Origin: a virus | IMG/VR virus record: IMGVR_UViG_3300025141_000025 | Location: 104,486-168,485 of that record | DNA length: 64,000 bases | Direction: 5' to 3' (one strand) | Shown here: in pieces, positions 2,338-59,056 of the stretch | Position numbering within the stretch: the first letter of the stretch is position 1 | How the letters are laid out: each line of letters begins with the position of its first letter | Notes under the pieces: generated by a model | Told to the model about the DNA's origin: nothing | Databases searched by the model: none | Seen by the model: only the letters and a program-made list of their open reading frames with translations | Program-made: the position numbers and the translations under genes

Positions 2338-2991
2338 TTACAGGTTAGCCTCAAGTAGCCGTAATAAGACAGCCTCAGTGATGTCTGCAATTTTGCTTTG
2401 TTGTAAAGCTATGTCATCTTTTGAGGGACTTCCCGTACCCCAGTCAGGCAACGAGTTATCAGTCATACATGCACTAATATTAATTTTTTTTGAACCCTGC
2501 ACACCGCCTCCGGTGTATAAAATTCCTACATGTCCCTTGTCAGGATACACAAATAAATCTGTTCCAGCGGCATTGGCTATTTGACATGCCTGTTTTAAAG
2601 GAATGGCATCGTCCATACCACCGGCAATAGTAACAGATCCTCCGGGTAAAGTTGGAATGGGAGCGCTGGTCCATCCTCGCAAAGCAGCTGGAGCCATATA
2701 GGTAATCGGTGGAATGGCCGCGGGCATGTATTCGCTTTGCATTGCCCTGTTCAGCGCCGCGGCGCCACGGGAATAAGCAAAAATTCGTTCAGGTCGTTCA
2801 GCTGCAATTTTTTTAGCAATGGCATCAGCTTCTTCATCAGTGACTGGTCCACTTTTTCCTATTTCTATTCCGCCGTATCCAAGCCTGGCTTCAAGATCGT
2901 CCTCTGACATACCGGCGCCATGAAGTCCTAAGGGAACTTCTAACAAACATTGTCTAATAAGATTGGTAAGATCGCTGCGTGTGATAATCAT
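2338..2991 (-). CDS. Leader-tagged alpha/beta hydrolase
   Basis: Leader MIITRSDLTNLIRQCLLE; AYSRGA nucleophile elbow, DDAIP, GH. Confidence 0.65.
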   Translation of the reverse strand: MIITRSDLTNLIRQCLLEVPLGLHGAGMSEDDLEARLGYGGIEIGKSGPVTDEEADAIAKKIAAERPERIFAYSRGAAALNRAMQSEYMPAAIPPITYMAPAALRGWTSAPIPTLPGGSVTIAGGMDDAIPLKQACQIANAAGTDLFVYPDKGHVGILYTGGGVQGSKKINISACMTDNSLPDWGTGSPSKDDIALQQSKIADITEAVLLRLLEANL

Positions 2992-3239
2992 CTTACAAAA
3001 TCTTTTTTAAGCGCCTCTATAGCTTCGCTCAACGCATCTTCAAATTTTGTAAATGCCTCTTTGCTAATCGACACTGAGCCAGGTTCTATCATTGCAACAT
3101 CATCATACAAAACATCATAAAGGTAATTTTTATCAAAAACTCCAAGTGGTGCAGCGTTACCACTTTCATCGTTCTTACTGGAAAACATTGATGATCGTTC
3201 TAAAATAATTTCTCTAATCATGTTTCTGGAAATTTTCAT
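2988..3239 (-). CDS. Leader-tagged hypothetical
   Basis: MKISRNMIREIILE; cargo GVFDKNYLYD resembles 12425..12745. Confidence 0.7.
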   Translation of the reverse strand: MKISRNMIREIILERSSMFSSKNDESGNAAPLGVFDKNYLYDVLYDDVAMIEPGSVSISKEAFTKFEDALSEAIEALKKDFVR

Positions 3240-3256
3240 ATTTTTATTTTATCCAA

Positions 3257-3526
3257 TTATTTGAAAATTTTTTCCTTGGCTGTGTTAAACAATTGCGGCA
3301 AAAAAGACTTTTTTAATCGCAGCAGTCTTTCAAACCTCACACGTTTTCTTGCATCTGTGTAAAGTGTTGTAGGTCGTCTAATCTCGCCATCAATGATTTG
3401 TTCACTAAAGTCGTAAAATTTAGATTTACCACTTGATTTAGGGGGTGCAGCATACGCAACGTTGAAAAAAATAAAAAAGAACAGCAAAAGAATTATAAAT
3501 GAAATTCTTTTGTTGCTGATTTTCAT
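3257..3526 (-). CDS. Secreted CglF/GltF-like gliding motility protein
   Basis: Signal peptide (AYA); YDFSEQIIDGEIRRP...RFERLLRLKKSF resembles the CglF pattern as I recall it. Confidence 0.6.
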   Translation of the reverse strand: MKISNKRISFIILLLFFFIFFNVAYAAPPKSSGKSKFYDFSEQIIDGEIRRPTTLYTDARKRVRFERLLRLKKSFLPQLFNTAKEKIFK

Positions 3527-3792
3527 GATTTATTTTTCACTTTTTTGACGATATTCTTAATTCTACGTCGTAGAAGTCTTTCACCCAAAACTGGACCTCC
3601 TACATCTAATGTCTCTGGTCTTTTTGTGGTCTCTTCACCACCGGCAGCTTTTGAATGATCAATATCCAATTCCAAATTACCTGCCTCGGGACACCCTGCC
3701 CATACATTTTCAATAGGTTCAACTTCTTCCGGGTGATCAGAATCAAGCATTTCTTTAATTAGTTTTCTGAGTTGTCGTTTTGTAATTTTCAC
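3523..3792 (-). CDS. MKITKRQL-leader protein
   Basis: N-terminal leader; C-terminal LGERLLRRRIK. Confidence 0.75.
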   Translation of the reverse strand: MKITKRQLRKLIKEMLDSDHPEEVEPIENVWAGCPEAGNLELDIDHSKAAGGEETTKRPETLDVGGPVLGERLLRRRIKNIVKKVKNKS

Positions 3793-4274
3793 TAGTCAAT
3801 ACTCCTATCGATTGCTTTATATACAGGATACATCTCATCCCATGTCGCCCAGTCAATATCTCCGGATTCTACGGCAGCTTCTAATACATCTGGAATATTA
3901 GAGGTGAAGCCGCCCTTAGGATGAGCGCCCGGTCCTTTGGGTTTGGAAAAAGGATCAACATACATGTTGCCGTCTCTTCCCTCGAAACCTTTATAAAAAC
4001 CAATGTCGATAAGATACTGGTGCACCTTCTGTGTCAGTTCCTGCTTAGATCCTTTCCATTTTTTTCCTGGTCGGCTTGAAGATTGCTGCGATGGTTGCGG
4101 CGCTCTGGATGGTGTGGTTTGACCCGTGGAGCCGGCTTCAAAATCCCTAACAAGCTGCTCATACTCGGCTCGAGTAATCGTGCCGGCCCTATAGTCTTTG
4201 TAATAATCTGCAGGCTCTTCGAGTAAAAGTGATTCTCGAATAATTCTTCTAAGTTGTCTCTTTGTGATTTTCAT
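3792..4274 (-). CDS. MKITKRQL-leader protein
   Basis: MKITKRQLRRIIRESLLLE. Confidence 0.75.
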   Translation of the reverse strand: MKITKRQLRRIIRESLLLEEPADYYKDYRAGTITRAEYEQLVRDFEAGSTGQTTPSRAPQPSQQSSSRPGKKWKGSKQELTQKVHQYLIDIGFYKGFEGRDGNMYVDPFSKPKGPGAHPKGGFTSNIPDVLEAAVESGDIDWATWDEMYPVYKAIDRSID

Positions 4275-4613
4275 TTATAACTCTTCTCGATATCTTGGAT
4301 CAATTGCTATTAACCTTTTATAGTCGTGATCTGTTTCATATCCGTTTGCTTGTAATATTGCTTCAATATCCTGTGCTCGCACACCCATTTTCCTTTCTAG
4401 TCCCATTAGTTCGCCATTGGTGGCGATGTGATACTGCCCCGGAAAATCAGTCGATAAATAAAACTTAAAACCTTTAAGGTCTAGTTCAGTACCAAGCAAT
4501 TGCTCTATTTTATCTAGGTTTGGATCACTATCCCACTTATCATAGTCACTGTATTTTACCTTTTCGATCTCTTCTTTGATGATTCTCTTTAGTTGTCGTT
4601 TTGTAATTTTCAT
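4275..4613 (-). CDS. MKITKRQL-leader protein
   Basis: Start moved to leader ATG. Confidence 0.75.
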   Translation of the reverse strand: MKITKRQLKRIIKEEIEKVKYSDYDKWDSDPNLDKIEQLLGTELDLKGFKFYLSTDFPGQYHIATNGELMGLERKMGVRAQDIEAILQANGYETDHDYKRLIAIDPRYREEL

Positions 4614-4615
4614 AA

Positions 4616-4831
4616 TCAAAATCCTAAGACTGCACCTTCATCGTGATGTCGATCTTCTAGTTCATCGGCTAATTCCCGGAGCGCTTCTGCACGCTCAAGA
4701 TCAGAGCGAAGCGTAGTGCCCACTAACTGATCAATCAATCTCCATTGTTCTTCACGATTGTCGCCGAACATGTTATCCTTATCCCGGGCTTCCTTAATGA
4801 TTCTTCTGAGCTGTCGTTTTGTAATTTTCAT
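4616..4831 (-). CDS. MKITKRQL-leader protein
   Basis: Leader; TAATG coupling. Confidence 0.75.
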   Translation of the reverse strand: MKITKRQLRRIIKEARDKDNMFGDNREEQWRLIDQLVGTTLRSDLERAEALRELADELEDRHHDEGAVLGF

Positions 4832-4935
4832 TAGCTTATTATTCCTTTTATTTTTTCGAGGTAATCATCTGCAATTTCTGGCTTCACTCCCATGCTCTTG
4901 TTCATGAAAGCTGTCTTTATTATATCCTGTATTTG
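4824..4935. repeat. Exact direct repeat, copy 1 (copy 2 at 63889-64000)
   Basis: 112 nt identical by direct reading. Confidence 0.9.
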
Positions 4936-5079
4936 TAGCAATTGCTGGTGAGATGTAGGTGCCATCGAATCTTTCCATTCTTCATATGCACCGGGATTGT
5001 TCGGATCCATACGTTCGGAAATTATTTTAGCGCTCTCTTCTTTGATGATTCGTCTTAGTTGTCGTTTTGTAATTTTCAT
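4831..5079 (-). CDS. MKITKRQL-leader protein (3' end duplicated at window end)
   Basis: Start moved to leader ATG; IIKEESAKIISE. Confidence 0.75.
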   Translation of the reverse strand: MKITKRQLRRIIKEESAKIISERMDPNNPGAYEEWKDSMAPTSHQQLLQIQDIIKTAFMNKSMGVKPEIADDYLEKIKGIIS

Positions 5080-5504
5080 TATGGACATACCCATTTTCCC
5101 ATTCTTTGTTGCCAATACGGCTCAGTAGCCTCTCCGGTCCTTCGATCTTTGCAACCCATTTGTTCTCCAGTGGGTTTTTTATCCCGCCTGCTGGTATCTA
5201 CACGGCCTGACCGGTCTATGCCGGGAGCCCAGTATTCTTCTAAATCATCTTCTTTAAGGAGGTCGGTTCCATGTGAAAGATCATCGATTAGGTTTTCATA
5301 GTCCTCAACAGGTACCTCATGGCCTAGGTCATCCATAAAATCGTCATATAAAAGTGATTTAATTGCGCCTGCTCCACCAGTGGCTAAAGCAGGATCAGCA
5401 TGATAAGATTTTGCCCTATCGGTTAAATAAGTTATGATCTCATCGTTGGACGCAACCATGGCTTCTCTGATTATTCTTCTTAGTTGTCGTTTTGTGATTT
5501 TCAT
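5079..5504 (-). CDS. MKITKRQL-leader protein
   Basis: Leader; internal LLKE. Confidence 0.75.
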   Translation of the reverse strand: MKITKRQLRRIIREAMVASNDEIITYLTDRAKSYHADPALATGGAGAIKSLLYDDFMDDLGHEVPVEDYENLIDDLSHGTDLLKEDDLEEYWAPGIDRSGRVDTSRRDKKPTGEQMGCKDRRTGEATEPYWQQRMGKWVCP

Positions 5505-5791
5505 CGCTTCCAGTCATCCCCCATGAGCTCATCGATCTCGCGCCAGCTTGCCTTCGTGATAAGGTACTTGTATCGAGGGTAAAACTTGCCATCGATATAG
5601 TCACGAATCGCATTCTCACCCTGTAGGACGACCTCGGTGGGGACAACGTAGCTAATCCCTTCACCCTCAGTGTGCTCATGGCCATACCACTCAACCTCAA
5701 CTGAGGTCACTGGTGTACCCACAGGTAAACCAGTCATGCGGTCTATTTCTTCTCGGATGATTCTTCTTAGTTGCCGTTTGGTGATCTTCAT
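5501..5791 (-). CDS. MKITKRQL-leader protein
   Basis: Leader; ATGA coupling. Confidence 0.75.
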   Translation of the reverse strand: MKITKRQLRRIIREEIDRMTGLPVGTPVTSVEVEWYGHEHTEGEGISYVVPTEVVLQGENAIRDYIDGKFYPRYKYLITKASWREIDELMGDDWKR

Positions 5792-6051
5792 GTCTGGTTC
5801 CCTATATCAATTGCTCTTTGTAGCGCGATCTCATATGCGTCGCCACGTTGTCCGCCGAGCCCGGTAATCTTCTCAAGCGCTGTATCAGCTATTTCGGCCG
5901 GGGTTGCATTTCTGTAACCGGGTTCATGTGCTATATGGTCGACCCACATGTGAACCTCTCCGGTCAAACCGGCACCAGGTACTATTCCGCCATCCTTCCC
6001 GACAAACGCTTCTTTGATAATTCTTCGGAGTTGTCGTTTTGTGATTTTCAT
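5788..6051 (-). CDS. MKITKRQL-leader protein
   Basis: Leader; ATGA coupling. Confidence 0.75.
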   Translation of the reverse strand: MKITKRQLRRIIKEAFVGKDGGIVPGAGLTGEVHMWVDHIAHEPGYRNATPAEIADTALEKITGLGGQRGDAYEIALQRAIDIGNQT

Positions 6052-6473
6052 GAATAATACTCCTCAAAAGCACTTGTTCCATCATCTTCACCAGCGTACA
6101 TTTCATCGGGATCTTTTTCCTCAACTTCCTCAACCTGCATTCCATTTTGTTTTGCATAAAGCTGAATGAGTTTATCGACATCTACACCATAGTAATCAGG
6201 GAATACGTCTGAATCCCATCTCTCCAAACCCCCTTGTACACCTTCTGCATCAGCTTTAAGCATTGCAGCGAGACCTTGCTCTGAAGTAAACCCTTGTACC
6301 CCTTCATCCAGAAGTGATCTTACCATCTCACCGAGACTGATCCATTCGCCGCCTTCATCTTCAACACTAAACCCGCCGTATGGAAGGCGCTTGACATAAA
6401 GCGTACCTTCGGACATTACGTTCGAAATTTCTTCTTTGATAATTCGTCTGAGTTGTCTCTTTGTGATTTTCAT
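6048..6473 (-). CDS. MKITKRQL-leader protein
   Basis: IIKEEISNVMSE. Confidence 0.75.
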   Translation of the reverse strand: MKITKRQLRRIIKEEISNVMSEGTLYVKRLPYGGFSVEDEGGEWISLGEMVRSLLDEGVQGFTSEQGLAAMLKADAEGVQGGLERWDSDVFPDYYGVDVDKLIQLYAKQNGMQVEEVEEKDPDEMYAGEDDGTSAFEEYYS

Positions 6474-6481
6474 TTTTTATC

Positions 6482-7114
6482 TCAATCGTACATTGGGGGT
6501 ATGTGCTTGACTGGCTTGCGCTTCTTCCTAAGAGTCGCGCCACCCTTCTCTAACACCTTTATAATCTTGTCTACTGTCGTCCCTGACTGTTTCGCCCATT
6601 GTTCATCAACGACAAAACTTGAACGCCCAAGCGGCATCGTACCCCATGGGGTCTCGTCGTCTTCGACCATAAACGCCACAACTTTACCACCCCTGCGAAT
6701 GGGTTGGTAAGTCAAGTATTTTACCTCGCGAGGCTCGACAGCACCGTAGCTATCACCTCCGATGGCCTTGAGTTCTTTTTTGTCAGGAGAAGCACCAACT
6801 CGTTTTTGATGATCTTTATCCAGTGCCATCGAGATTGCCAACCGGATGTTTTCGAGATCAGGATATGGTGTAACCCCTAAGTCTGCCAACGTACCTCGGT
6901 CGTCGTCGTAGAAAGCGTCGGCCTGATCTAGACCGTATTCATCGATAAAGAGTTGTGCCACTTTTTGATGATCAGCATGGCTCATTTTTGAAGGGTCTTC
7001 AGGGAGGGCATCAACAAGTTTTTTCTCCCATGCATCCAACTCGGCCTGGCGTTCTTTCCAGGATTTCATCTGTTCTTTGATGATTTTTCTAAGTTGTCGT
7101 TTTGTAACTCTCAT
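6482..7114 (-). CDS. MRVTKRQL-leader protein
   Basis: Leader variant. Confidence 0.75.
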   Translation of the reverse strand: MRVTKRQLRKIIKEQMKSWKERQAELDAWEKKLVDALPEDPSKMSHADHQKVAQLFIDEYGLDQADAFYDDDRGTLADLGVTPYPDLENIRLAISMALDKDHQKRVGASPDKKELKAIGGDSYGAVEPREVKYLTYQPIRRGGKVVAFMVEDDETPWGTMPLGRSSFVVDEQWAKQSGTTVDKIIKVLEKGGATLRKKRKPVKHIPPMYD

Positions 7115-7115
7115 A

Positions 7116-7496
7116 TTACATTCTCCACTTGCAGTTTCTAGCTAACCTGTCACATTTAATAAGTGCTTCTTTAATTAGTCTTTCTAACCCAAACAAATTC
7201 GCTGTTTTCCAATCATCAAAATCTTCTAATTGTGAAGCAGATAGTTTTTTATCTGCACACCTCAATAAATGAGCCGCTTCGTAATACTTTGACTCGGCCA
7301 GCGCAAACATTTTGTGTTTGTGATGTTGTTCGGCTTCACTCATGATTGCTGATGCTTTATTATACAATAAAGCGGCGCAGTCTGCTGTAGGACCACATGT
7401 CACGATCGTCGTGCACATTTTAGTTTTATAATCAATGGTACTTGTGGCACAAGAAGTACAAAGTAAAAATAGCATTACCGTGGCAAGAAATCTCAT
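7116..7496 (-). CDS. Putative lipoprotein
   Basis: Start moved to MRFLATVMLFLLCTSC (lipobox-like). Confidence 0.55.
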   Translation of the reverse strand: MRFLATVMLFLLCTSCATSTIDYKTKMCTTIVTCGPTADCAALLYNKASAIMSEAEQHHKHKMFALAESKYYEAAHLLRCADKKLSASQLEDFDDWKTANLFGLERLIKEALIKCDRLARNCKWRM

Positions 7497-7498
7497 TT

Positions 7499-7798
7499 TT
7501 AACTGCCAAGCATCTCGTCTAAACCAAGCATAGATTTGCACATAAAATAAGAATAATGTAATCTTTCGAAAGTTTGCCAAACATATTCAACACTCACAGG
7601 TCTCACGGACATCTTTAACCAGTAATCCGGATTAATGTCGACTGCGACGTCCTCAGCCTCTCTGATGTTTTCTGCCCTGATAAATTGTACATGGCTTTTA
7701 AATTCCCTGTGGGGAGTTTTTTCATATAATTCAAAAATACTGCCTTCCATTTCTTCATTATTTTTGAACAGATCCATCTGTATTGCTAGATTATTCAT
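7499..7798 (-). CDS. Hypothetical protein
   Basis: ORF with GAGGAG SD. Confidence 0.6.
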   Translation of the reverse strand: MNNLAIQMDLFKNNEEMEGSIFELYEKTPHREFKSHVQFIRAENIREAEDVAVDINPDYWLKMSVRPVSVEYVWQTFERLHYSYFMCKSMLGLDEMLGS

Positions 7799-7807
7799 TT
7801 TCGTATG

Positions 7808-7960
7808 TCACTCCTCTTTATTCCACGGTGCGTCTGGGTCTTCCATTATCGATACCATACTTTTTTCGAATCCGCGGGTCGCTATCCAAGCACCCAAGAC
7901 CATTCCCACAGCCGTACAGCCAAGAAATGTAAGTGCCACCAGTATGGAATCCCAGCTCAT
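7808..7960 (-). CDS. Small single-TM protein (not in ORF track)
   Basis: MSWDSILVALTFLGCTAVGMVLGAWIA..., 50 aa, fills gap. Confidence 0.5.
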   Translation of the reverse strand: MSWDSILVALTFLGCTAVGMVLGAWIATRGFEKSMVSIMEDPDAPWNKEE

Positions 7961-7962
7961 CT

Positions 7963-8145
7963 CTACTTAATTCTCACATGCGATTTCAAAATTTCGTCTA
8001 AGCTTTTTACAATTGATGACAATGTGTAGGCAGTGTCTTGTGCTCGCATCATTGCCAATGGATTTTCTTTTCCCTCAATAGTTTGAAAAGATTTTATGGT
8101 AAATTCACGAAGCTGTATTAACATTTGAATTTCTTTTTGTGTCAT
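7963..8145 (-). CDS. Hypothetical protein
   Basis: Coupled ORF. Confidence 0.55.
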   Translation of the reverse strand: MTQKEIQMLIQLREFTIKSFQTIEGKENPLAMMRAQDTAYTLSSIVKSLDEILKSHVRIK

Positions 8146-8828
8146 TATTCATTAGCCCAATCAGACGCGCCTAACAGGTATTGTCCTAAATCACTCGCAT
8201 CTAATTTATCCAAACTCAATCTAAATGAATTACCGAATTCTATGGTGATCATATCTCCCACAACAGAAACCCTTGTTGCATAAGGCGTGTTATTGTCTAG
8301 GTCCCTAAGCGTAACTCTTCGTTCCCACTGAGCCCCGGGCTTTGTAATTGGACTTTCATCAATTCGAGCTTTCTCTTCCTTGATGATTCTTCTAAGCTGT
8401 CGCTTTGAAATTTTCGTTCTGCCTTCTTTAAAGCTGCGCTGGTGAATCTCTTCATCGCTTAAGACACCACCAGCATCGTACTCTTTTCGTGCAATCTTGA
8501 GTTCTCTACTGAGGTCATCATGATCTATACCAAATTCATCAGCCAGAGTCCGGTGATTCCACCCCTGCGTCGCCGGATCATCTCGATCGCGGGAAACAAA
8601 ATATGTTGCCATGACGGAAGATGATGCAGGTGTTATGTGACCGTATTCTTTTGCCCATTTCTTATAGTGATTAATTAATTTTTCCGCCGTCTGATCTCCA
8701 CCCATGGGAGCATCGCCGGTCGGATTATCGCGATACCGTTCGTAGTCTCCAGGAACAGTTGGGTCATAAGGTCGGCCACCATACTCTTTTATGATTCTTC
8801 TTAGTTGTTGCTTTGTGATTTTCATCAT
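8145..8828 (-). CDS. Double-leader protein (two fused cassettes)
   Basis: N-terminal leader plus internal FKE-GRTKISKRQLRRIIKEEKARIDE. Confidence 0.75.
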   Translation of the reverse strand: MMKITKQQLRRIIKEYGGRPYDPTVPGDYERYRDNPTGDAPMGGDQTAEKLINHYKKWAKEYGHITPASSSVMATYFVSRDRDDPATQGWNHRTLADEFGIDHDDLSRELKIARKEYDAGGVLSDEEIHQRSFKEGRTKISKRQLRRIIKEEKARIDESPITKPGAQWERRVTLRDLDNNTPYATRVSVVGDMITIEFGNSFRLSLDKLDASDLGQYLLGASDWANE

Positions 8829-9088
8829 CTAGCTCCATGTACCTTTTCAGCCATAAGCCTAAGTGCCTCTTTTCTAATTCCGGGTGAGCGAAACCCACCG
8901 CCAATACGTTCGGCTGAGATTCGGATAAACTCTATTAGCTCATCAGTCTGCATCTCAACCTCAGCTAGAAAATCAGCACGCATTTCATCTTCATCATCAG
9001 AAATAGTCCCGTCGGGATTCATTTCCCTAACAAGGCGAGATTTCTCTTCTTTGATGATTCTTCTCAGCTGTCTTTTTGTTATTTTCAT
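8825..9088 (-). CDS. MKITKRQL-leader protein
   Basis: IIKEEKSRLVRE. Confidence 0.75.
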   Translation of the reverse strand: MKITKRQLRRIIKEEKSRLVREMNPDGTISDDEDEMRADFLAEVEMQTDELIEFIRISAERIGGGFRSPGIRKEALRLMAEKVHGAR

Positions 9089-9324
9089 CTTGTCGGTCCT
9101 CTTAAATTGTCCTTTAGTTCTCTAATGATCTTTTCTAACCCACCAACGATACCCATTGCCGTCTCGGGATCCTCTAAATTCCATCCCATACCTGCAGCAA
9201 GATCATCAATTGTTGTCCATACACCTTCGAATGTGTCGATATTGACCTGACCACGATTCTCATTGAGAAGTTTAGTTTTCTCTTCTTTGATGATTCTTCG
9301 AAGTTGGCGATCTGTGATTTTCAA
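9085..9324 (-). CDS. MKITDRQL-leader protein
   Basis: IIKEEKTKLLNE; cargo resembles 9321..9560. Confidence 0.75.
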   Translation of the reverse strand: MKITDRQLRRIIKEEKTKLLNENRGQVNIDTFEGVWTTIDDLAAGMGWNLEDPETAMGIVGGLEKIIRELKDNLRGPTR

Positions 9325-9560
9325 CTTTGGTTCCCTTTTCTTAGTTCACTTGCTACAGTTTCCAATGCATCAGCAAATGTACCTTGAACCGCAGGGTCTG
9401 ACATATCTACAGTGCCGGCCATTGCTTCGTCATCGAGCCAACGCCATATACCATCAACTGCATTTTGCCAGAGTCCGCCCTGAACATCTGGTTCGACACG
9501 CATGGATTGCGCTGTTTCTTCCTTGATGATTCTTCTAAGTTGTCGTTTTGTAATTTTCAT
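9321..9560 (-). CDS. MKITKRQL-leader protein
   Basis: Leader. Confidence 0.75.
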   Translation of the reverse strand: MKITKRQLRRIIKEETAQSMRVEPDVQGGLWQNAVDGIWRWLDDEAMAGTVDMSDPAVQGTFADALETVASELRKGNQS

Positions 9561-9667
9561 TTTACGTTACACTTTCCTAAACAGTTACTGCAGCCACAAC
9601 AGCCACAGCAACAACAGCAGTGTGCGGAATTAAATAGGTTCCAAAGGCGGTGAAAAAAAGCTTTCAT
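9557..9667 (-). CDS. 36-aa cysteine-rich peptide (not in ORF track)
   Basis: MKAFFHRLWNLFNSAHCCCCCGCCGCSNCLGKCNVK; TAATG and ATGA overlaps with both neighbours. Confidence 0.6.
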   Translation of the reverse strand: MKAFFHRLWNLFNSAHCCCCCGCCGCSNCLGKCNVK

Positions 9668-10029
9668 TATGAATAATCTCCATTAATAAGCTTATCAGTA
9701 AACTCTTCCATGGTTTTGTACGCCAATTGCCTAATTCTTCTTGTAAGTTCGTTTTCAAGGTCAATTGCTGCGTCATCCACCTGTGCTTTCCATGCAGTTT
9801 TTGCATCGCCGGCCGTATCACCCATAGCCATCATAGAGGGATCACCCTTGTCAAATGCTTTGACTTCTGCATCGTGCCATTTATCGACAAGTTCACCTAC
9901 GTCCTTCCAGTCAACCCGGGGCCAGTGGTGAGCTCGTCGTTCCAAGCTAGGCATATCATCCTGTTCATCAAGGACTTTGGCCTTCTCTTCTTTGATAATT
10001 CTTCTTAGTTGCCTTTTCGTAATTTTCAT
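9667..10029 (-). CDS. MKITKRQL-leader protein
   Basis: IIKEEKAKVLDE. Confidence 0.75.
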   Translation of the reverse strand: MKITKRQLRRIIKEEKAKVLDEQDDMPSLERRAHHWPRVDWKDVGELVDKWHDAEVKAFDKGDPSMMAMGDTAGDAKTAWKAQVDDAAIDLENELTRRIRQLAYKTMEEFTDKLINGDYS

Positions 10030-10469
10030 TTTTTATCCTTAGGGGTTGGCTTTTGTGTTTTTTTGATTTCATAAAATACAATATTAACGAATTCACCACT
10101 CTGTCCAAGCTGATCTAATTTAAGAAACTTGGCAGAGAATATTTCGTCAGATGATGTAGCATTTTGATATTCAACATACATCAGCATTAAAAGTTTAGCA
10201 CCGGTCATATGTTTTTCAGACGAATCACCTGGAAATGTTACCATTAAAACATCATTCACACCTAGACAGTTGCTGTGTCTTATTACCTTCGCGACCATTG
10301 GAAATCTAAAAGCAGGTACATCATGCACCTCGACCGGAGAATTACATTTATCTATCACGGCCTGCACAGTCAGGTGATCATAAGATGGAATCACATTTTT
10401 AGTTGTAGTGGTACAAGATCCGCACCCAATCACAAATGTAAGCAATAAAACTGTTAAAATATTCTTCAT
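10026..10469 (-). CDS. Putative lipoprotein
   Basis: MKNILTVLLLTFVIGC lipobox-like. Confidence 0.6.
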   Translation of the reverse strand: MKNILTVLLLTFVIGCGSCTTTTKNVIPSYDHLTVQAVIDKCNSPVEVHDVPAFRFPMVAKVIRHSNCLGVNDVLMVTFPGDSSEKHMTGAKLLMLMYVEYQNATSSDEIFSAKFLKLDQLGQSGEFVNIVFYEIKKTQKPTPKDKK

Positions 10470-10473
10470 TCAA

Positions 10474-11538
10474 TTAACCTTTCATAAGACCAGATAGCTT
10501 TTGCCACCGCTCCAAGATAATTACATCCTCGGGTCGGAGATTATAAGATTCAGTCTTTGTTTTGTTTCCTAGCGCATTACCTATAGCGGTAAGATATTCC
10601 AGCGTTTTGTCAGTGCCCAGTTTTTTAAGGTCAACTTTGGCTATAGTTTTGATATCAGCACTCGGATCATTAAGCATTGTGGCGGCCCACCGATGATGAC
10701 CATCGAGAATCTCATCGTCGAGAGAGGCATATGCTTTAAGGTTACCACCGGAAACACCATTTACTGCCATTCCGAGTGCCTTGGGTAAGAGAATATTAGT
10801 TTGTGTGGGTACTGCTTTTTGTGCTGCCATACCTCCACCCAGCTTAATTTCAATACTGTCATCACTATCTTCACCGTCATTGGCACCAAGTCCAGCAGTC
10901 ATAAATTCTTCAGCACCGGGTGCGTCCATACCAAGAAATGCATTGGGAGCGGGAGCATCGCGCTCAACCAAATAATGTAACCCCTGTTTCCAGGCTGCCT
11001 CCTTAAACGGTTCAGCAATGTCGATATTGTATTTTCCGCCAGGTGTCAAAGCATCAGCAACATCTTTGACATCACCGGTTGCATCTTTCGGCCCGGGCAA
11101 GAAAGGCATCTTACTTTTTGGAAGTCCGCTACCGGGAATTTTTGAACCAACTGCTTCAACCCTTTTAATAAACGTTCCAGTACCCAGTTCTTCCAACCAG
11201 TCAGCAACCTTATCCGGATCTGGTTTGACAACAGTCTCCTCACCATCATCGCCCTTATCGGTAAATTCCATAGCCTTGAAAATAGGCTGTTCAGGATCAC
11301 GAGTTAAAATTTGAGCAGCGACCTCTTTCGCATCGGCACCTTTAAAGTTTAACTGGTTGTCAAATGCAGTGCCTTTTGGCTCGCCTACATCAACAACCTC
11401 TTTTTCTCCCTCGGCCGATTCTTCTTTTGTTTCTTCAAAAAGAAATGTTGATAACATTGAGCGTGATGATTTAGGTTTACGGTGCTCAAGTATCACATCA
11501 TGAATAATTTTTTGAAGATGTGCCTTTGTGATCTTCAT
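10474..11538 (-). CDS. Leader-tagged ParB/Srx-like domain protein
   Basis: MKITKAHLQKIIHDVILE; PTQ and ILDGHHRWAA motifs. Confidence 0.65.
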   Translation of the reverse strand: MKITKAHLQKIIHDVILEHRKPKSSRSMLSTFLFEETKEESAEGEKEVVDVGEPKGTAFDNQLNFKGADAKEVAAQILTRDPEQPIFKAMEFTDKGDDGEETVVKPDPDKVADWLEELGTGTFIKRVEAVGSKIPGSGLPKSKMPFLPGPKDATGDVKDVADALTPGGKYNIDIAEPFKEAAWKQGLHYLVERDAPAPNAFLGMDAPGAEEFMTAGLGANDGEDSDDSIEIKLGGGMAAQKAVPTQTNILLPKALGMAVNGVSGGNLKAYASLDDEILDGHHRWAATMLNDPSADIKTIAKVDLKKLGTDKTLEYLTAIGNALGNKTKTESYNLRPEDVIILERWQKLSGLMKG

Positions 11539-11540
11539 GA

Positions 11541-11948
11541 TTAAATTTCCCCAGAAAGATCGCCCAAGTTTAATTCAGCACTTTCTGATAGGACATCAAC
11601 TTGAGCTTCTAGCATCTCTTGTAAGGCTGCAGCCTGAGCTGCCAATGCCTCAACAATCGGGGCCTTTTCGTTGATTTCTGGTCCACAATTAGTACAATGT
11701 TGCGCTGCATTTTGAACAGACTCAACAACCAAGTCCAAGGATCTTGCAGCGACCTCCATTTCAGTAAGCATGTCACCGGCTGGATCTTCACTTTCATTTA
11801 CAAGCTCACCCACAGCGTCTGCCACATCCACAGCAGGCAGCTCAAGTGCCACAGCCTCAGGCGCAGGTCCATGATCTCCACATGCTTCCTGTAATTTTCG
11901 GCGTTCGTTTCTAATAATTCTTCTTAGTTGTCGTTTTGTGATTTTCAT
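11541..11948 (-). CDS. MKITKRQL-leader protein
   Basis: IIRNERRKLQE; CxxC. Confidence 0.75.
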   Translation of the reverse strand: MKITKRQLRRIIRNERRKLQEACGDHGPAPEAVALELPAVDVADAVGELVNESEDPAGDMLTEMEVAARSLDLVVESVQNAAQHCTNCGPEINEKAPIVEALAAQAAALQEMLEAQVDVLSESAELNLGDLSGEI

Positions 11949-12038
11949 TTTTTGCTCCTATTTTCATCACATTTATTACAAATAAACTATTTCATCCTTT
12001 GAAATAATTTTATAGTGTTTTTTACCTTTTGATCATTT

Positions 12039-12422
12039 TCAAAAGCTGGCCCCTAAATCAATTTCAATAGATCGATCCTCAGCCCATTGTTCAACATCAA
12101 GTGGACCGATAAAACCATCCTGCGGTGGCTTACTATCAAGCCATGTTCGATTGGGTGCTCCAGCATGCTGAGCCAGGTCATCCAAATCTTCAAACCCTAA
12201 CCCTCTTTGGTCTAGCCATTCACCCCAGCCTTTTTCAAGCTCGGCATCAGTCCTTTGTTCACCTTCGCCTCCAGGTGCGTAGTAATCTTCCTCACCTGGA
12301 GGTGCAGAAAAATCTCGATCATCTGAGTGCCATAGGTCTCTAACTTGGCGATCCACACCCGGCATACCTTCGCTAAGTGACTCCTTGATAATCTTTCTTA
12401 GTTGTCGGCAGGTAAGTTTCAT
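12039..12422 (-). CDS. MKLTCRQL-leader protein
   Basis: IIKESLSE. Confidence 0.75.
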   Translation of the reverse strand: MKLTCRQLRKIIKESLSEGMPGVDRQVRDLWHSDDRDFSAPPGEEDYYAPGGEGEQRTDAELEKGWGEWLDQRGLGFEDLDDLAQHAGAPNRTWLDSKPPQDGFIGPLDVEQWAEDRSIEIDLGASF

Positions 12423-12424
12423 GA

Positions 12425-12745
12425 TTAGCCCTCCACTAAATCCATAACAACGGAATTAGTTGCACTGTTAATTGTTCGTTCAATTAGCTTGGCCTCATCA
12501 GGATCGAGGTAATCAGCGCCAATAGAATTCAAATAATCCATAATTTCTTCTCTAATAATGTCTGACAGATAACTCTTGTCAAAGACACCGTGATCTGGTT
12601 TAGGGTGAAGTGCTTGCATTCTAGCTCGAAAGTCATCATCCATCTTTGCTGCAGCCATACCCATATCAGCTGGAGTCATCTGCTCCATTAGTCTAGCCTT
12701 CTCTTCTTTGATGATGCACCTGAGTTGTCGTTTGGTGATTTTCAT
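12425..12745 (-). CDS. MKITKRQL-leader protein
   Basis: IIKEEKARLME. Confidence 0.75.
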   Translation of the reverse strand: MKITKRQLRCIIKEEKARLMEQMTPADMGMAAAKMDDDFRARMQALHPKPDHGVFDKSYLSDIIREEIMDYLNSIGADYLDPDEAKLIERTINSATNSVVMDLVEG

Positions 12746-12750
12746 GATTG

Positions 12751-13023
12751 TTAACGCTCCTGCAGCGACTGTATGACAAAGTTGATTACTTGGCGGGTTG
12801 TCAAAGGGCCATCTTGATAGTCTAAGTCGACCAGCCCTGAGGCATTTTCAATGGCCTCGTCCACCGCGACCATTAAATCCTCAAGGACAGATTCACCGGG
12901 AGCATATTCACCTTGGATACCCTGATTAAACTTATAGTCCGGCCGGCGGGTAGGCTGTTCATTCATAAGTCTAGCCTTCTCTTCCTTGATGATTCTTTTT
13001 AGCTGTCTTTTTGTGATTTTCAT
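12751..13023 (-). CDS. MKITKRQL-leader protein
   Basis: Start moved to leader ATG; IIKEEKARLMNE. Confidence 0.75.
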   Translation of the reverse strand: MKITKRQLKRIIKEEKARLMNEQPTRRPDYKFNQGIQGEYAPGESVLEDLMVAVDEAIENASGLVDLDYQDGPLTTRQVINFVIQSLQER

Positions 13024-13024
13024 T

Positions 13025-13633
13025 TTAATCCCCTGTGTATCCCACATGTAGTCTTTTGTCTTCCAACGCAGCAATTACCATTTTTTGATCGGAATATTCT
13101 CCACTACTTCGATCAAGAGTCTTCAGAACTCTGTAAGCTGCTTCGATTTCCTCTTGAACTTCCGAGACTGCCTTCTGCTTGCTCTTGTAATAATCAGCAA
13201 TCCCTGCGTCTTCTTTAAAGAGTTTGGCTTTCTCTTCTTTAATGATTCTTCTGAGTTGTCTTTTTGAGATTTTCATTTTTCCTTCTCTAATGACTTCGAG
13301 CGATCCGTTTGGAAAACCCGTCTTAAATCCTAGTTGGTTAAGATAGCCTTGAATCTCATATGTTCTATCGCTACTTCCAAACCCTTCCATGCTGTCTTCA
13401 TATCGCCAAGCTAACTCGTCCGCAAGGTCTATCGCCAATATAGCATGCCTCGTCTCAACGCTCTGAAACTCTTCTGGGGTCAATAGTTGCTCAGCTGCCC
13501 GTGTATATTCATCTGGATACATTATGTAATCGACACCTGGCTCTGGACCTTGTGCAGTCATAGAACCTCTCTCTAAAAGATTCCGCTTTTCTTTTCTAAT
13601 AATTTTTCTTAGATTTCTTTTTGTGATTTTCAT
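13025..13633 (-). CDS. Double-leader protein (two fused cassettes)
   Basis: Leader plus internal IRE-GKMKISKRQLRRIIKEEKAKLFKE. Confidence 0.75.
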   Translation of the reverse strand: MKITKRNLRKIIRKEKRNLLERGSMTAQGPEPGVDYIMYPDEYTRAAEQLLTPEEFQSVETRHAILAIDLADELAWRYEDSMEGFGSSDRTYEIQGYLNQLGFKTGFPNGSLEVIREGKMKISKRQLRRIIKEEKAKLFKEDAGIADYYKSKQKAVSEVQEEIEAAYRVLKTLDRSSGEYSDQKMVIAALEDKRLHVGYTGD

Positions 13634-13938
13634 CAAACGCCTCGCCTCTTCATGTCATGTGCTAAATCTGACATCTCTTCGCCGGCATCCATCAAAAGTT
13701 CTTCCAGTTTGTCATACCTGGACGTACCGAATTCGTTACCGTCATCAAGCCACTCCGGAGGTACAGACTTTATCTTTCGATACTCAAAGAACATTTTGTC
13801 CAATGCTGATCTCATGGCCTCAACCTTATCAACCTCATCCTGGTTGAGGGTCAGTTGTCGGACATCTTTCTCAGCTCGGATCTCATTTACAAGTTTGCCC
13901 TTAATAATTCTTTTTAGTTGTTGTTTAGTAATTTTCAT
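13633..13938 (-). CDS. MKITKQQL-leader protein
   Basis: Start moved to leader ATG; IIKGKLVNE. Confidence 0.7.
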   Translation of the reverse strand: MKITKQQLKRIIKGKLVNEIRAEKDVRQLTLNQDEVDKVEAMRSALDKMFFEYRKIKSVPPEWLDDGNEFGTSRYDKLEELLMDAGEEMSDLAHDMKRRGV

Positions 13939-14234
13939 GAATTTTCCTTCGTGCCAAAGATCCAATTATAAATGCTAGCCGGAATTTCTTCACGCGGAGG
14001 GTACTCTAAAGTTCCAATAAACAACCTTAAATTTTGTGATCCCGTTATTGATCCCGTCTTGATTTCTTCAAGTACCTGGTCCCTGACATATTCCAACGCA
14101 ACGGCATCATCACGATATAACATTTTCATGGTGGCATCTGTTTCTGATAACAGGTGACTACGAATAAACCCTATTTTTCTGTTGATAGCCGCGATGCCGT
14201 TTTCTAATTCTTGGCGTGTAATTCGACTACCCAT
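13935..14234 (-). CDS. Hypothetical protein
   Basis: Start moved to MGSRITRQEL after GGAG SD. Confidence 0.55.
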   Translation of the reverse strand: MGSRITRQELENGIAAINRKIGFIRSHLLSETDATMKMLYRDDAVALEYVRDQVLEEIKTGSITGSQNLRLFIGTLEYPPREEIPASIYNWIFGTKENS

Positions 14235-14751
14235 TGTTTTTCTCCAACATGTGACGAACCATGGTCGTAATGTCCCCACGGGTGATTCGTAAAATTTGTG
14301 ATTTCGATCGAGCTGATTCGGCGATGCGGCGGCCCATACCGGATTGTCTAGGCACATCTTGAAAATCAAATTCACCAGGCATCAGCTCTTCAAGTTCTCG
14401 CCTTTCTTTTTCGATGGCAGCCTGTTGCTCGACATCCAGTTTCTCCTGTTCGATCATGGCGTCGTAATAGTCATCCAAGTCTTTAATGGCTGTGTTGTAT
14501 TCTTCCACAGTCTTGTATGGTCTGTGGCGAGGTCGAAACCCGTGGAGCTCTTTAAAATAATCAGAGTAAGTCTGCCCTAGAACTGATAGAGCCAAATCCT
14601 TACCTGTTACGACGCCCTGCCTCTCCCAAAAGGCTTGGTCTGTCACGTACCCGGCGCCGGTTTGAGCATTTATTTTTTCTGCTTCTTCCTGCGCGGTAGG
14701 TGCGAATTGCATGGCTTCGCGAATTATTCGTTTAAGTTGAGTTCTTTTCAC
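14227..14751 (-). CDS. Leader-tagged hypothetical phage protein
   Basis: MKRTQLKRIIRE; YSDYFKELHGFRPR; C-terminal leader-like helix. Confidence 0.7.
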   Translation of the reverse strand: MKRTQLKRIIREAMQFAPTAQEEAEKINAQTGAGYVTDQAFWERQGVVTGKDLALSVLGQTYSDYFKELHGFRPRHRPYKTVEEYNTAIKDLDDYYDAMIEQEKLDVEQQAAIEKERRELEELMPGEFDFQDVPRQSGMGRRIAESARSKSQILRITRGDITTMVRHMLEKNNG

Positions 14752-14824
14752 TTCATCTCCTCAGCGAACAATGACAACACTGCTAAGTATCGACAAAAAG
14801 CCAGACTTGAACGGTGAAACGAAG

Positions 14825-16058: not shown

Positions 16059-16064
16059 GTGTGA

Positions 16065-17429: not shown

Positions 17430-17485
17430 GAGGTCTCTCTCCTATTATTTTGAAAACACTCTGTTCCCCTCCCGGGAACATGTAT

Positions 17486-18163: not shown

Positions 18164-18167
18164 AAAA

Positions 18168-49391: not shown

Positions 49392-50423
49392 TTATTTTAG
49401 GGTTTGGGATTTTTTGAGTTCTTTATCAATCCACTGCAACGCGGTTTGATTTTTCACAGGTGATAAAATAAAATTACTAATTTTCTTTTCAGCGGTCAAA
49501 TTTTCTTTTTCCCTCAAATTGTCCCCGTCTAAAATTACAATATTACTGCCAAAAAGATCTATGTAGTTTTGCTTGTTTTTGTCGACTGCTGTCCAAGACC
49601 TTGTAAGATCCTTGTCACGCAATCGGCGGCCGCCTCTTTCACCCCGGGCAATGTTTCTTTGTTTTGCAACATCAAGTGAAGTTGCAACGTACACCATAAA
49701 TGTATCATATCCAAGATCTTCAAACTTTTTCTTTTGACTTTTTATTGTCGTATAATTTCCGCCGGTACCATCAATTATTAATCCTAAACGACCGTCAACG
49801 TAGTCCTCTTTTCTTTTCTTTGTTAGAGCTCTTGATTTATTGAACAGTTTTAGTTTTTTAATCCTATTTTCCCTGTCATCATCTTGCATGTCCATGCTTG
49901 AAAACTCACCCGACTCAATTCCTTTTTTCATTAGTAACTCAAAGGCATCATCTACATTTACAATCTTTAGTCCATATCGACCAGGAAAAACTAAATTCTT
50001 GACCGCAGTCGACTTGCCTGATCCGGGACCACCAGCAAGAAAAATTACCTTAAAAATCCCCTGGTCGTGGACACCCTCAGTCAGTAATGACAGGGTTTCA
50101 TAAATTATTTTTCTTATCTGTCGCCGTGTGGTTCTCATGTTTCCTTCATTCAGTTTACCAGGTGCCAACTGGTCTAATGTCTTTTCTAAGACTTCACCTT
50201 TTTTCCATCCTGGCCCCTGGTTCATGCATTGATACTCAGCAGTTTTTCCGGCGTTACCTGGAAGTATGTTAATAGAAATTACAATGCCAACGGAGCCATG
50301 GTGTTTACAGCTGGGATTTACATTGACAACATGGTCACCCACTGCCGGCTCATGAGCATGGCTTTGAAAAGTATCAAGCGCTTCCCGAACAAGGCTTCTT
50401 AGTTTGCTTTTTGTAATTTTCAT
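49392..50423 (-). CDS. Double-leader protein: SH3-like domain plus Zeta-toxin-like P-loop kinase
   Basis: MKITKSKL; internal LNE-GNMRTTRRQIRKII..LLTE; GGPGSGKS, NVDD, IIDGTG. Confidence 0.7.
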   Translation of the reverse strand: MKITKSKLRSLVREALDTFQSHAHEPAVGDHVVNVNPSCKHHGSVGIVISINILPGNAGKTAEYQCMNQGPGWKKGEVLEKTLDQLAPGKLNEGNMRTTRRQIRKIIYETLSLLTEGVHDQGIFKVIFLAGGPGSGKSTAVKNLVFPGRYGLKIVNVDDAFELLMKKGIESGEFSSMDMQDDDRENRIKKLKLFNKSRALTKKRKEDYVDGRLGLIIDGTGGNYTTIKSQKKKFEDLGYDTFMVYVATSLDVAKQRNIARGERGGRRLRDKDLTRSWTAVDKNKQNYIDLFGSNIVILDGDNLREKENLTAEKKISNFILSPVKNQTALQWIDKELKKSQTLK

Positions 50424-57980: not shown

Positions 57981-58193
57981 TTATTTCTCAAATTTTTTCC
58001 CGTCAGCTGTCATGTGCGGGCCTGCATGTGATTTATGCCTCACACAAACATTGTATTCACAATCACTCATTTTGATTTCTTTGCATAAAATTTTAGGATA
58101 CATGACTGCCCACACAGCCACCCCTACCGCAGCAAATCCCAACAAGACAAATGTCAGTATTACGGTTGTTATAATGTTCATGATGGACTCCAC
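57981..58193 (-). CDS. Small TM protein with Cys/His tail
   Basis: TM; C..C..H..H. Confidence 0.5.
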   Translation of the reverse strand: MESIMNIITTVILTFVLLGFAAVGVAVWAVMYPKILCKEIKMSDCEYNVCVRHKSHAGPHMTADGKKFEK

Positions 58194-59056
58194 AGTTTTG
58201 TTCGACTTGTGTCGTAGATCGGAATACCAAGATCTAGTGATGCCAACATGATCTTCTTCACTACACCTGCCGAGAAATAATCGATGTCTTTAGCTGTGTT
58301 ACCGCTAGGGGCACTTTGTCCACCGGAGACCAGCTTCTCCGCCGTTTTAAGAACAGCCTGCGCAACATCGTCCTTTGCAACGATAATTCCTCGAGGTCTC
58401 CAGTTGTCAACTAGGGCTTCATTATTCGACCAATCTGTATCTGCCGGGTTCCACGTGGACTGGTCTAAAACGTACGGGATTCCATCTCTTGCCATCTTCT
58501 CCATGTACTCGTCTCCGCGCTTGAGTTGACCGTACCGACTGTAATCTTTTGACACAGAGGGTCGTTTGTTTCTGCCAGAAGATCTGTCTCTTTGCGTAAC
58601 AGCCTCTTCGTCACCTTCATGACCGACACCATAGTCACCATAAAACCCTGAGTACATTTTGTCTTGATCGTTTGTTGCCAGCGTTATTCTTCCCTTGATC
58701 CACAACCCGTATGGGAGACCGGCTGCTGGCTCAAAGCTATCACCAGGGAGAGTCATCGTGGTAGAAAGCTCGTCCTTGCCTCTTCCTTTCATGTTCTCAA
58801 TGCCATAGAAATCGCTAGTCCAGTGGACAGTGTCCAGAGTGCTGAGAAACTGGTGATCTGCGTTTTTGTTGAATGCACGCTTGATATCACGACCGGCCTC
58901 TTTGCCGATTTGCCCACCAAAAAACTGGTCACCGAAACTATCGGATGCGGCTAGGTCATGGACAAAACCCATCGGATCTTCTTTTAATAGCATTCGAATT
59001 TCAGTGAGGAGTGCCTCCCTAATCATTTTCCTAAGTTTTGATTCTGAAATTTTCAT
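58178..59056 (-). CDS. MKIS-leader protein, paralog of 51507..52325
   Basis: MKISESKLRKMIREALLTE; shared motifs. Confidence 0.7.
   Translation of the reverse strand: MKISESKLRKMIREALLTEIRMLLKEDPMGFVHDLAASDSFGDQFFGGQIGKEAGRDIKRAFNKNADHQFLSTLDTVHWTSDFYGIENMKGRGKDELSTTMTLPGDSFEPAAGLPYGLWIKGRITLATNDQDKMYSGFYGDYGVGHEGDEEAVTQRDRSSGRNKRPSVSKDYSRYGQLKRGDEYMEKMARDGIPYVLDQSTWNPADTDWSNNEALVDNWRPRGIIVAKDDVAQAVLKTAEKLVSGGQSAPSGNTAKDIDYFSAGVVKKIMLASLDLGIPIYDTSRTKLWSPS

Follow-up and report, generated by a model that had tools for sequence, protein, structure and literature searches.

Why do genes whose products are otherwise unrelated begin with the same short, basic peptide? The question is raised by a 64,000-nucleotide (nt) stretch of viral DNA (IMG/VR record IMGVR_UViG_3300025141_000025, positions 104,486 to 168,485), hereafter the window, in which about 29 genes carry such a peptide, termed the leader; 25 of them lie in an array at 2338-14751. 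A first-pass annotation of the sequence had proposed that the leader loads these proteins into the phage head. The comparisons described here indicate that the shared N-terminus is probably a prohead-targeting propeptide, the counterpart of the capsid-targeting sequence (CTS) of phage T4 in a clade of ~280-kb marine 'far-T4' myoviruses.

A shared N-terminal leader

The leader (MKITKRQLRRIIKEE) gave 26 strict pattern matches in the window, all on the minus strand. Twenty-four were located at the starts of open reading frames (ORFs), 0-35 residues from the upstream stop, and the remaining two copies were internal, their K codons being at 8414 and 13273. Degenerate variants headed five ORFs, with starts at 2991, 3239, 14751, 50423 and 59056, and the strict and degenerate leader genes together numbered about 29. 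The 12.4-kb array contained 22 N-terminal and both internal strict copies plus the degenerate variants at 2991, 3239 and 14751, and 26 of its 30 gene junctions overlapped or were separated by no more than 10 nt. Six genes inside the array had no leader; three of these were lipoprotein-like or had a signal peptide. The first-pass annotation had described about 25 leader ORFs here, mostly translationally coupled, and further copies at 49392, 58178, 63229 and 63576; the count and the coupling were reproduced, and the four outlying genes were as described.

Unbiased clustering of all candidate N-termini in the window returned the leader group as the largest family (29 members). The second largest (MK[VI]GDLV, 18 members) consisted of ordinary homologous small proteins. 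A hidden Markov model (HMM) of the leader, of the kind that the annotation had suggested scanning against relatives, found 27 copies in the window and 38 in G001, a complete 284,429-bp IMG/VR genome used as a proxy for the head genes of the window's genome; all were clustered and on the coding strand. The MK[VI]GDLV genes lie on the minus strand at 28003-47671 (at least 18, of 50-95 aa, with at least 14 in G001) and are homologous over their full length, unlike the leader family. A second 14-residue leader type (MKLLREYIR...) was observed on a cluster of larger proteins at 51507-57962. It equals the first in length and in its hydrophobic/basic pattern, and intermediates start the ORFs at 59056 and 50423.

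The leader is 14 residues long, extended to about 22 in about half of the copies, and is basic, with Lys/Arg alternating with Ile/Leu. In an AlphaFold2 model of the 354-aa cargo protein (mean predicted local distance difference test, pLDDT, 70.5), it was predicted to form a separate helix (residues 5-20, pLDDT about 78), followed by a disordered linker (residues 21-42) and the folded body.

The 39-nt core of the leader DNA was 79% identical among copies, compared with 29% for the 39 nt upstream and 32% and 28% for the next two 39-nt blocks downstream. No common DNA was found upstream of the leader copies in the window. Over 325 pairs of copies, 1412 codon differences were synonymous and 772 non-synonymous, and between two and five codons were used at every position with a multi-codon residue. 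The codon variety was nevertheless 12.1 bits against the 21.3 bits allowed by the background, with a preference for the A-rich codons AAA, ACA, AGA and GAA. As synonymous differences exceed non-synonymous ones, selection on the leader is mainly at the level of the peptide, with some DNA-level constraint or recent exchange in addition. The internal copy at 8414 has ACG in place of ATG, and its G001 counterpart likewise lacks the Met, yet the peptide is retained in both, which speaks against a function tied to translation initiation.

Source genome and distribution of the leader

No virion genes were found within the 64-kb window. Its genes include those for DnaK and DnaJ, for a peptide deformylase and a tubulin-like protein, and for a MoxR-type ATPase and its DUF2201 partner. 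The window is collinear with 180-231 kb of G001, with core proteins 55-88% identical. Statements on head genes are therefore statements on relatives. G001 encodes a capsid protein of the Gp23 family (E 9e-76) and, at 82430-83035, a prohead protease of the Peptidase_S77 family that both Pfam and PHROG confirmed. The nearest cultured phages, by the G001 capsid protein, were Microcystis phage Mel-JY01, Flavobacterium phage immuto and Rhodothermus phage RM378. On sequence comparison, the source phage is an uncultured member of a ~280-kb marine 'far-T4' myovirus clade.

A back-translated pattern of twelve leader residues matched 67 stretches in IMG/VR, distributed over about 40 contigs, of which many measured 180-293 kb. 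The same pattern occurred in 185,579 prokaryote genomes in only four stretches, on three contigs of metagenome-assembled genomes. One of these, NHDW01000006.1 (305,838 bp; L175/L177/L190), is binned as 'Methylococcaceae bacterium TMED69' and is almost certainly a mis-binned phage of the leader clade, because it also carries an S77 protease. The leader is thus essentially absent from the prokaryote genomes searched; the annotation had named a wide non-viral occurrence as evidence against its proposal. A literature search for the leader string found no paper containing it.

Prohead protease and cut-site motif

A T4-type prohead protease of the Peptidase_S77 family was detected in all 11 of the large leader-bearing records tested, including G001. 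The T4-like protease that the annotation had asked after is thus present in the relatives, through which the window's own genome is judged. In an alignment of the G001 capsid protein with T4 gp23, V-L-K-E|A fell on the known F-L-T-E|A cut, so that the predicted motif is also found at the capsid propeptide.

Cut motifs were counted in 54 leader proteins (24 from the window and 30 from G001). In 48 of the 54, an L/I-X-E motif had its Glu exactly at residue 14 (I-K/R-E), in agreement with the earlier description of a leader closing on hydrophobic-X-Glu. A second L/I-X-E, with Glu at residues 17-27 (peak 21-22), was present in 29 of the 54 (54%), a fourfold enrichment over the approximately 13% expected from the bodies. 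The specificity of the T4 protease gp21 is L/I-X-E, and redundant sites are known in the propeptides of phiKZ and other giant phages (PMC9026906).

An orthologous cargo protein with a T4-type CTS

The ParB/Srx-like 354-aa cargo protein has homologues at 71 viral loci, which carry lineage-specific short leaders, all closing on hydrophobic-X-Glu. Several of these leaders are near-copies of the T4 CTS (MKHIKTYQEFINE, MKSFNEFLNE), and intermediate forms were present in further lineages. In the T4 record itself, IPII and IPIII start with MKTYQEFIAE followed by Ala, and IPI has a 19-residue relative. A 54-aa ORF of T4 (NC_000866, 18966-19130, minus strand) starts with MKTFKEFIKE and was the best CTS match after IPII and IPIII, ahead of IPI.

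Two T4-like genomes with the cargo, G005 and G007, were fetched whole and gave strong S77 matches. Unbiased clustering showed that the largest N-terminal family in each was a tandem set of T4-type CTS genes (five to nine per set; one starts with MKSFEQYIAE). The ParB-like cargo is the first gene of the set in both, with about nine in a row in G005. It was the only gene held in common, as no homologues of the other CTS genes of G005 and G007 were found in the window. By this comparison, the leader occupies the exact place of a bona fide CTS on an orthologous protein, in a like array. A homology of the leader with the T4 CTS would rest on this bridge, since direct similarity between the two was not significant.

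Head-module genes with leader-like N-termini

Two small genes, A and B, are conserved just downstream of the protease gene and upstream of the scaffold-like gene (78371-80002 in G001) and the capsid gene, both in G001 and in 13 other relatives. Gene A (135-161 aa) starts with a sequence like MAKITKRMLKGIVKE, followed by C-L-V-E-I-L-x-E. In gene B (88-122 aa), a segment like KITPNFLKRIVVEE is followed by a basic stretch, another hydrophobic-X-Glu and a tail that is acidic. When an extended-leader HMM was searched against the 372 predicted proteins of G001, genes A and B were the best matches outside the arrays, with independent E-values (iE) of 0.006 and 0.035, respectively. Conversely, when 3709 ORFs from all six frames of the window and G001 were searched with a profile of gene B only (from 12 relatives), gene B itself was retrieved and then about 40 leader ORFs, with E-values down to 4e-6, and the alignments always placed the N-terminal segment of gene B on the cargo N-terminus. 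The P-values of the leader in hhalign were 3.8e-6 for gene A and 1.6e-4 for gene B. From their conserved position, the two genes are candidates for encoding prohead-core proteins. The annotation had suggested looking for the motif in the capsid and scaffold propeptides; leader-like N-termini occur here on two proteins encoded between the protease and the scaffold.

Phage immuto (vB_FspM_immuto, MW353176; host Flavobacterium sp. LMO8) has a five-member N-terminal family of the MKKSQLRQIIKE type, including a small head-module gene, immuto35A_198. When the 232 immuto ORFs were ranked by similarity to the tag, immuto35A_198 came fourth, directly behind three family members, and the scaffold eighth, a somewhat stronger result than the corresponding one in T4. 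A literature search for immuto virion proteomics found none. As far as we could find, the match between the leader and head-module genes A and B has apparently not been described.

Cargo bodies

The bodies behind the leader had been described as unrelated from gene to gene, and pairwise BLAST of the leader-trimmed sequences (E<=1e-3) indeed found no similarity, except between nested or duplicated pieces. The cargo proteins are short, with a median length of 112 aa, and acidic: their median pI is 4.75, and 30 of the 31 fall below pI 6, compared with a median pI of 6.04 and 49% below pI 6 for the other proteins of the window. Seven orthologue pairs between the window and G001 were compared. The ratio of non-synonymous to synonymous change (dN/dS) was 0.05-0.11 in five, with dS saturated; in the other two, dS was too saturated for an estimate. 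As judged by these ratios, the cargo ORFs are real genes under purifying selection.

Only a few bodies resembled known domains. The 49392-50423 protein matched Pfam Zeta_toxin (3.5e-9) and AAA_33 (3.6e-9). The annotation had named a hydrolase and a ParB-like protein. The 2338-2991 protein matched Pfam Ser_hydrolase at E 5.9e-4, which is under the curated cut-off, and the 354-aa protein matched ParB/Srx folds weakly, though consistently. Its DGHHRW motif was invariant in 27 homologues, and a search against Protein Data Bank (PDB) profiles matched the motif to 1vk1 and free serine kinase at E 0.5 only. The top six VIA-align matches were all ParB/Srx folds, with Z-scores of only 3.2-4.1; Foldseek on the model returned nothing significant, and the Pfam search gave no match. 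Two cargo proteins had no cultured homologues by tblastn against 50,697 phage records, and nine from the window had no match in PHROGs.

Three leader proteins in the window are multi-module fusions, and the other cargo is encoded by separate small genes. The leader-gene loci are hypervariable, with cassette exchange, between the window and G001: orthologous bodies lie in other arrays, beside other neighbours. The 8145-8825 protein and its G001 orthologue have the first module and the internal leader in common, but a different second module. An exact 112-nt repeat (63889-64000 = 4824-4935) runs from the end of one cargo gene into the beginning of the leader that follows, and its breakpoint falls in leader DNA. 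This suggests a cassette duplication broken within the leader DNA, or an effect of the contig end.

Candidate promoter element

In G001, the sequence GATAYTTAG occurs 18 times on the coding strand and 4 times on the other. Coding sequence makes up 95.6% of G001, yet twelve of these 18 sites are intergenic. They lie 8-44 nt before the portal, neck and large virion genes, and also before the ParB-like cargo. The window has GATAYTTAG[TC] sites (9-10 nt) at 156, 14791, 15301 and 61210; among the genes that they precede are the first array gene and the gene at 59053-61197. GATAYTTAG may be a late promoter of the far-T4 clade. At the start of the window, an ORF cut by the boundary (1-126, minus strand) has a leader-like segment, KITRLSSRELQRLILQEE, about 19 residues in, with a GATATTTAG element upstream at 156.

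Proposed mechanism and alternative explanations

In the mechanism that we propose, the array would be transcribed as long, translationally coupled units, and the leader (14-22 residues) would form a free amphipathic helix, joined to the cargo by a flexible linker. This helix could bind the assembling prohead core as the N-termini of genes A and B would, and the cargo would be enclosed as the shell forms. The S77 protease would then cut after Glu14 (I-K/R-E), and often again at the second L/I-X-E near residues 21-22, freeing the cargo in the head. Internal leaders would allow the two-module fusion proteins to be cut apart likewise, and cargo genes may be swapped through recombination in the conserved leader DNA. 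Core binding, cleavage, presence in virions, injection, any effector role and the plugging-in of domains of any kind behind the leader are inferences.

Several observations weigh against prohead targeting. The acidic cargo contrasts with the basic internal proteins of T4. Glu14 is followed by Glu in 35 of 50 cases and by Ala in 7, unlike the T4-typical Glu-Ala bond, and L/I-X-E is not avoided in the cargo bodies (z = +0.9). Leader HMMs found nothing significant among the T4 internal proteins and T4 core proteins, and genes A and B matched no Pfam or PHROG family. Comparison of genes A and B or the leader with T4 gp67, gp68, gp22 and the internal proteins likewise gave nothing significant, only the pentapeptide IKEEK in gp67. 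In T4 itself, similarity of core proteins to the CTS was weak, with gp22 ranking 14th of 280 ORFs. The T4-type late promoter TATAAATA is absent from the window, although its absence says nothing either way because the clade hardly uses the motif. Finally, the support comes from comparison, and its protease and head-module part from relatives. The checks from the annotation that lent themselves to computation all favoured its capsid-loading proposal, which is partly supported, by the leader family, the S77 protease of relatives, the register of the cut motif, the CTS bridge and the head-module link; the acidic cargo, the Glu after Glu14 and the lack of detectable similarity between leader and CTS speak against a simple copy of the T4 system.

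A more far-reaching version holds that the tag is a copy of a prohead-core assembly helix, that any gene behind the 45-nt leader is packaged, and that 30-40 mostly acidic proteins per genome, including protease-separable polyproteins, are injected as a fast-evolving anti-defence library, some perhaps as DNA mimics. We put this forward tentatively, as a possibility that is open to considerable doubt.

The leader could instead be a docking helix whose partner lies outside the prohead, be it a chaperone, a nucleic acid or a hub protein of host or phage. Genes A and B would then resemble it through common descent or because one helix was reused in the manner of an exon, and packaging would play no part. 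A basic amphipathic helix does resemble the basic-flanked hydrophobic segments bound by DnaK, the window encodes DnaK and DnaJ, genes A and B are without proven function, and the acidic cargo is unlike the known T4 internal proteins. However, G001 has 38 leader copies and no Hsp70 gene, the leader sits in place of a genuine T4-type CTS on an orthologous cargo, and outside the arrays the motif occurs only on proteins encoded between the prohead protease and scaffold genes; the L/I-X-E register and the enriched second site would have no role in pure docking. We therefore regard docking as rather unlikely. A tag for the phage's own DnaK was rejected, as G001 has the leader family but no Hsp70. 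The proteins might also be structural paralogues of head-core proteins, forming an inner-body-like scaffold as in phiKZ and SPN3US rather than delivered cargo. The N-terminus common to leader proteins and genes A and B would agree with this, as would the 20-member head paralogue family of SPN3US (PMC5694885) and the acidic internal peptides that T4 retains from its core proteins. The bodies are mutually unrelated, however, and hence not paralogues; the leader proteins do not form a paralogue family of the phiKZ/SPN3US type. They include enzyme-like domains (ParB/Srx-like, P-loop kinase, possible hydrolase), and a gene content that varies strongly between close relatives fits accessory cargo better. 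A scaffold role appears quite improbable, and it overlaps with prohead targeting, as the proteins are in the head either way.

An in-plane membrane-binding helix that sends proteins to the inner membrane would also alternate Lys/Arg with Ile/Leu, and lipoprotein-like or signal-peptide genes do occur in the array (3257-3526, 7116-7580 and 10026-10469). Against this, only four to six Ile/Leu make up the narrow hydrophobic face, the sequence after the helix is Glu-rich, and the cargo is strongly acidic and soluble-looking. The CTS bridge and the register of the protease site would be left unexplained, and we consider membrane targeting very improbable. The two functions are compatible, since T4 proheads assemble on the membrane (PMC5694885). 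Lastly, the 45 nt might act as nucleic acid, either as a recombination or gene-conversion cassette or as an mRNA operator or translation-initiation enhancer, with the peptide a by-product. The restricted codon variety and preferred codons, the break of the 112-nt duplication in leader DNA and the different neighbours of orthologous bodies in the window and G001 point in this direction. Yet synonymous differences outnumber non-synonymous ones nearly 2:1 across the two to five codons per multi-codon position, start-less internal copies retain the peptide, and the same peptide motif stands on genes A and B of 14 relatives in different DNA. Recombination in the leaders is real, but it accounts for the shuffling and not for the conservation, which makes such an origin highly improbable. 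Prohead targeting remains the probable explanation.

Feature coordinates and other genes of the window

The leader genes and the candidate promoter are listed in Table 1.

Table 1. Leader genes of the window and the candidate promoter upstream of the array (iE, independent E-value).
Feature	Position	Strand	Remarks
GATACTTAG element, candidate promoter, 40 nt upstream of first array gene (start 14751)	14783..14791	-	GATAYTTAG class preceding virion genes
First (most upstream) array gene, 174 aa, GTG start, shortened leader variant MKRTQLKRIIRE	14227..14751	-	Leader HMM iE 0.097
Leader gene, 101 aa	13633..13938	-	
Two-module leader protein, 202 aa; internal second leader from 13273, ATG kept	13025..13633	-	N-module orthologous to G001 189749-190453
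Leader gene, 90 aa	12751..13023	-	
Leader gene, 106 aa	12425..12745	-	
Leader gene, 127 aa; G001 body about 70-79% identical	12039..12422	-	
Leader gene, 135 aa; very acidic body, net charge -20	11541..11948	-	Best window match of head-gene-B profile, E 5e-5
Leader gene, 354 aa; ParB/Srx-like body, invariant DGHHRW; conserved across T4-type lineages, leader type lineage-specific	10474..11538	-	
Leader gene, 120 aa; body 83% identical in G001, dN/dS 0.05	9667..10029	-	
Leader gene, 79 aa	9321..9560	-	
Leader gene, 79 aa, TTG start	9085..9324	-	
Leader gene, 87 aa	8825..9088	-	
Two-module leader protein, 226 aa; Met-less (ACG) internal leader from 8414	8145..8825	-	G001 orthologue 274326-275036
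Leader gene, 210 aa; body 73% identical in G001, dN/dS 0.11	6482..7114	-	
Leader gene, 141 aa; body net charge -21	6048..6473	-	
Leader gene, 87 aa	5788..6051	-	
Leader gene, 96 aa	5501..5791	-	
Leader gene, 141 aa; body 78% identical in G001, dN/dS 0.09	5079..5504	-	
Leader gene, 82 aa; 3' end within exact repeat 4824-4935 = 63889-64000	4831..5079	-	
Leader gene, 71 aa	4616..4831	-	
Leader gene, 112 aa	4275..4613	-	
Leader gene, 160 aa	3792..4274	-	
Leader gene, 89 aa, GTG start	3523..3792	-	
Degenerate-leader gene, 83 aa, MKISRNMIREIILE	2988..3239	-	
Last array gene, 217 aa; degenerate leader like head gene A N-terminus; possible serine hydrolase body	2338..2991	-	Gene-A profile on residues 4-20, iE 0.67
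Leader-variant gene, 343 aa, only basic cargo (pI 9.5): N-module, internal leader-like segment, zeta-toxin/AAA_33-type P-loop kinase domain	49392..50423	-	
Leader-variant gene, 292 aa, MKISESKLRKMIRE	58178..59056	-	
Leader gene, 115 aa	63229..63576	-	
Leader gene, 106 aa; body 82% identical in G001, dN/dS 0.10	63576..63896	-	

The gene directly downstream of the array (179-2284) encodes a 701-aa lipoprotein-like protein. Its Cys-rich metal-binding repeats are of the MopE type, it matches VWA weakly, and it shares 62% identity with its counterpart in G001. A GC-rich island at 14000-24000 (0.49-0.535, compared with about 0.36-0.48 elsewhere in the window) encodes a KaiC/RecA-like ATPase, a MoxR-type AAA_5 ATPase and a DUF2201 metallopeptidase/VWA protein, which are 83-87% identical in G001. 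The genes of DnaK (620 aa), DnaJ (350 aa) and the peptide deformylase are located at 39095-42647. G001 has a homologue of the deformylase but no Hsp70, and the DnaK/DnaJ pair therefore appears to be accessory within the clade. The tubulin/FtsZ-like protein at 61610-62713 matched Pfam Tubulin at E 3.5e-4, below the curated cut-off, and is 87% identical to its G001 counterpart.

Comparison with known systems

The T4 CTS is the textbook case of loading accessory proteins into the head and injecting them, and the engineering of T4 for protein delivery is built on it. To our knowledge, it is known experimentally so far from a handful of proteins per phage. If the interpretation given here is correct, abundant ocean phages have scaled the CTS principle about tenfold with a different tag. 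The match between tag and head module suggests that targeting may mimic a core protein's own assembly helix. Dozens of orphan genes would gain a function by location, as candidate injected counter-defence or take-over proteins, and a new short tag for packaging foreign proteins would be at hand. The cultured Flavobacterium phage immuto, with its small version of the system, is a possible test system.

In T4 and the T-even phages, the CTS of IPI, IPII, IPIII and Alt is removed by gp21 (Mullaney and Black 1996, as reviewed in PMC9026906, PMC3012670 and PMC5694885). The internal protein genes of T4 are described as hypervariable loci shuffled by recombination (Repoila 1994 and Comeau 2007, as cited in PMC2839356), with more than 30 variants at hypervariable loci across the T4 superfamily (PMC2839356), and it has already been suggested that the CTS lets T4-like phages load various proteins (PMC9026906). 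The T4 system and the present one both have a short N-terminal propeptide with an L/I-X-E end on unrelated proteins, in a T4-type phage with hypervariable, shuffled loci and with an S77-type protease, detected here in the relatives, and one cargo of the window is orthologous to a marine T4-like gene with a genuine CTS. The differences are in number (about 29 genes per 64 kb and 38 copies in G001, compared with three to four in T4) and in the leader, which here has 14-22 residues, is basic, often has two cut motifs and shows no detectable similarity to the CTS. Here the leader also heads two head-module proteins, which is not clear in T4, and the cargo is acidic and includes polyprotein-like fusions with internal leaders, features that are known here from the sequence alone.

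The giant phages phiKZ, 201phi2-1 and SPN3US are similar to the proposed system in having large genomes, many head-internal proteins processed after Glu, redundant sites, big variable families and gp21-like proteases (PMC5694885, PMC9026906); family B of SPN3US has 20 members (PMC5694885, PMC9026906). In these phages, however, the propeptides mostly exceed 100 residues, the motif is S/A-X-E and the proteins are true paralogues, whereas here a short leader with L/I-X-E precedes unrelated bodies. In the polyvalent proteins of phages and conjugative elements (Iyer et al. 2017, PMC5512222), several unrelated modules enter together with the DNA, as is proposed for the cargo here, and a few of the window's proteins likewise combine modules, joined by a recurring peptide. 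The cargo here differs in being encoded mostly by separate small genes, each with its own leader, and the three fusions are exceptional. The kind of system is thus known, from the CTS and internal proteins of T4; what is new is the scale, the distinct, longer basic leader, often with two motifs, the acidic cargo, the polyprotein-like fusions and the match between the tag and the head module.

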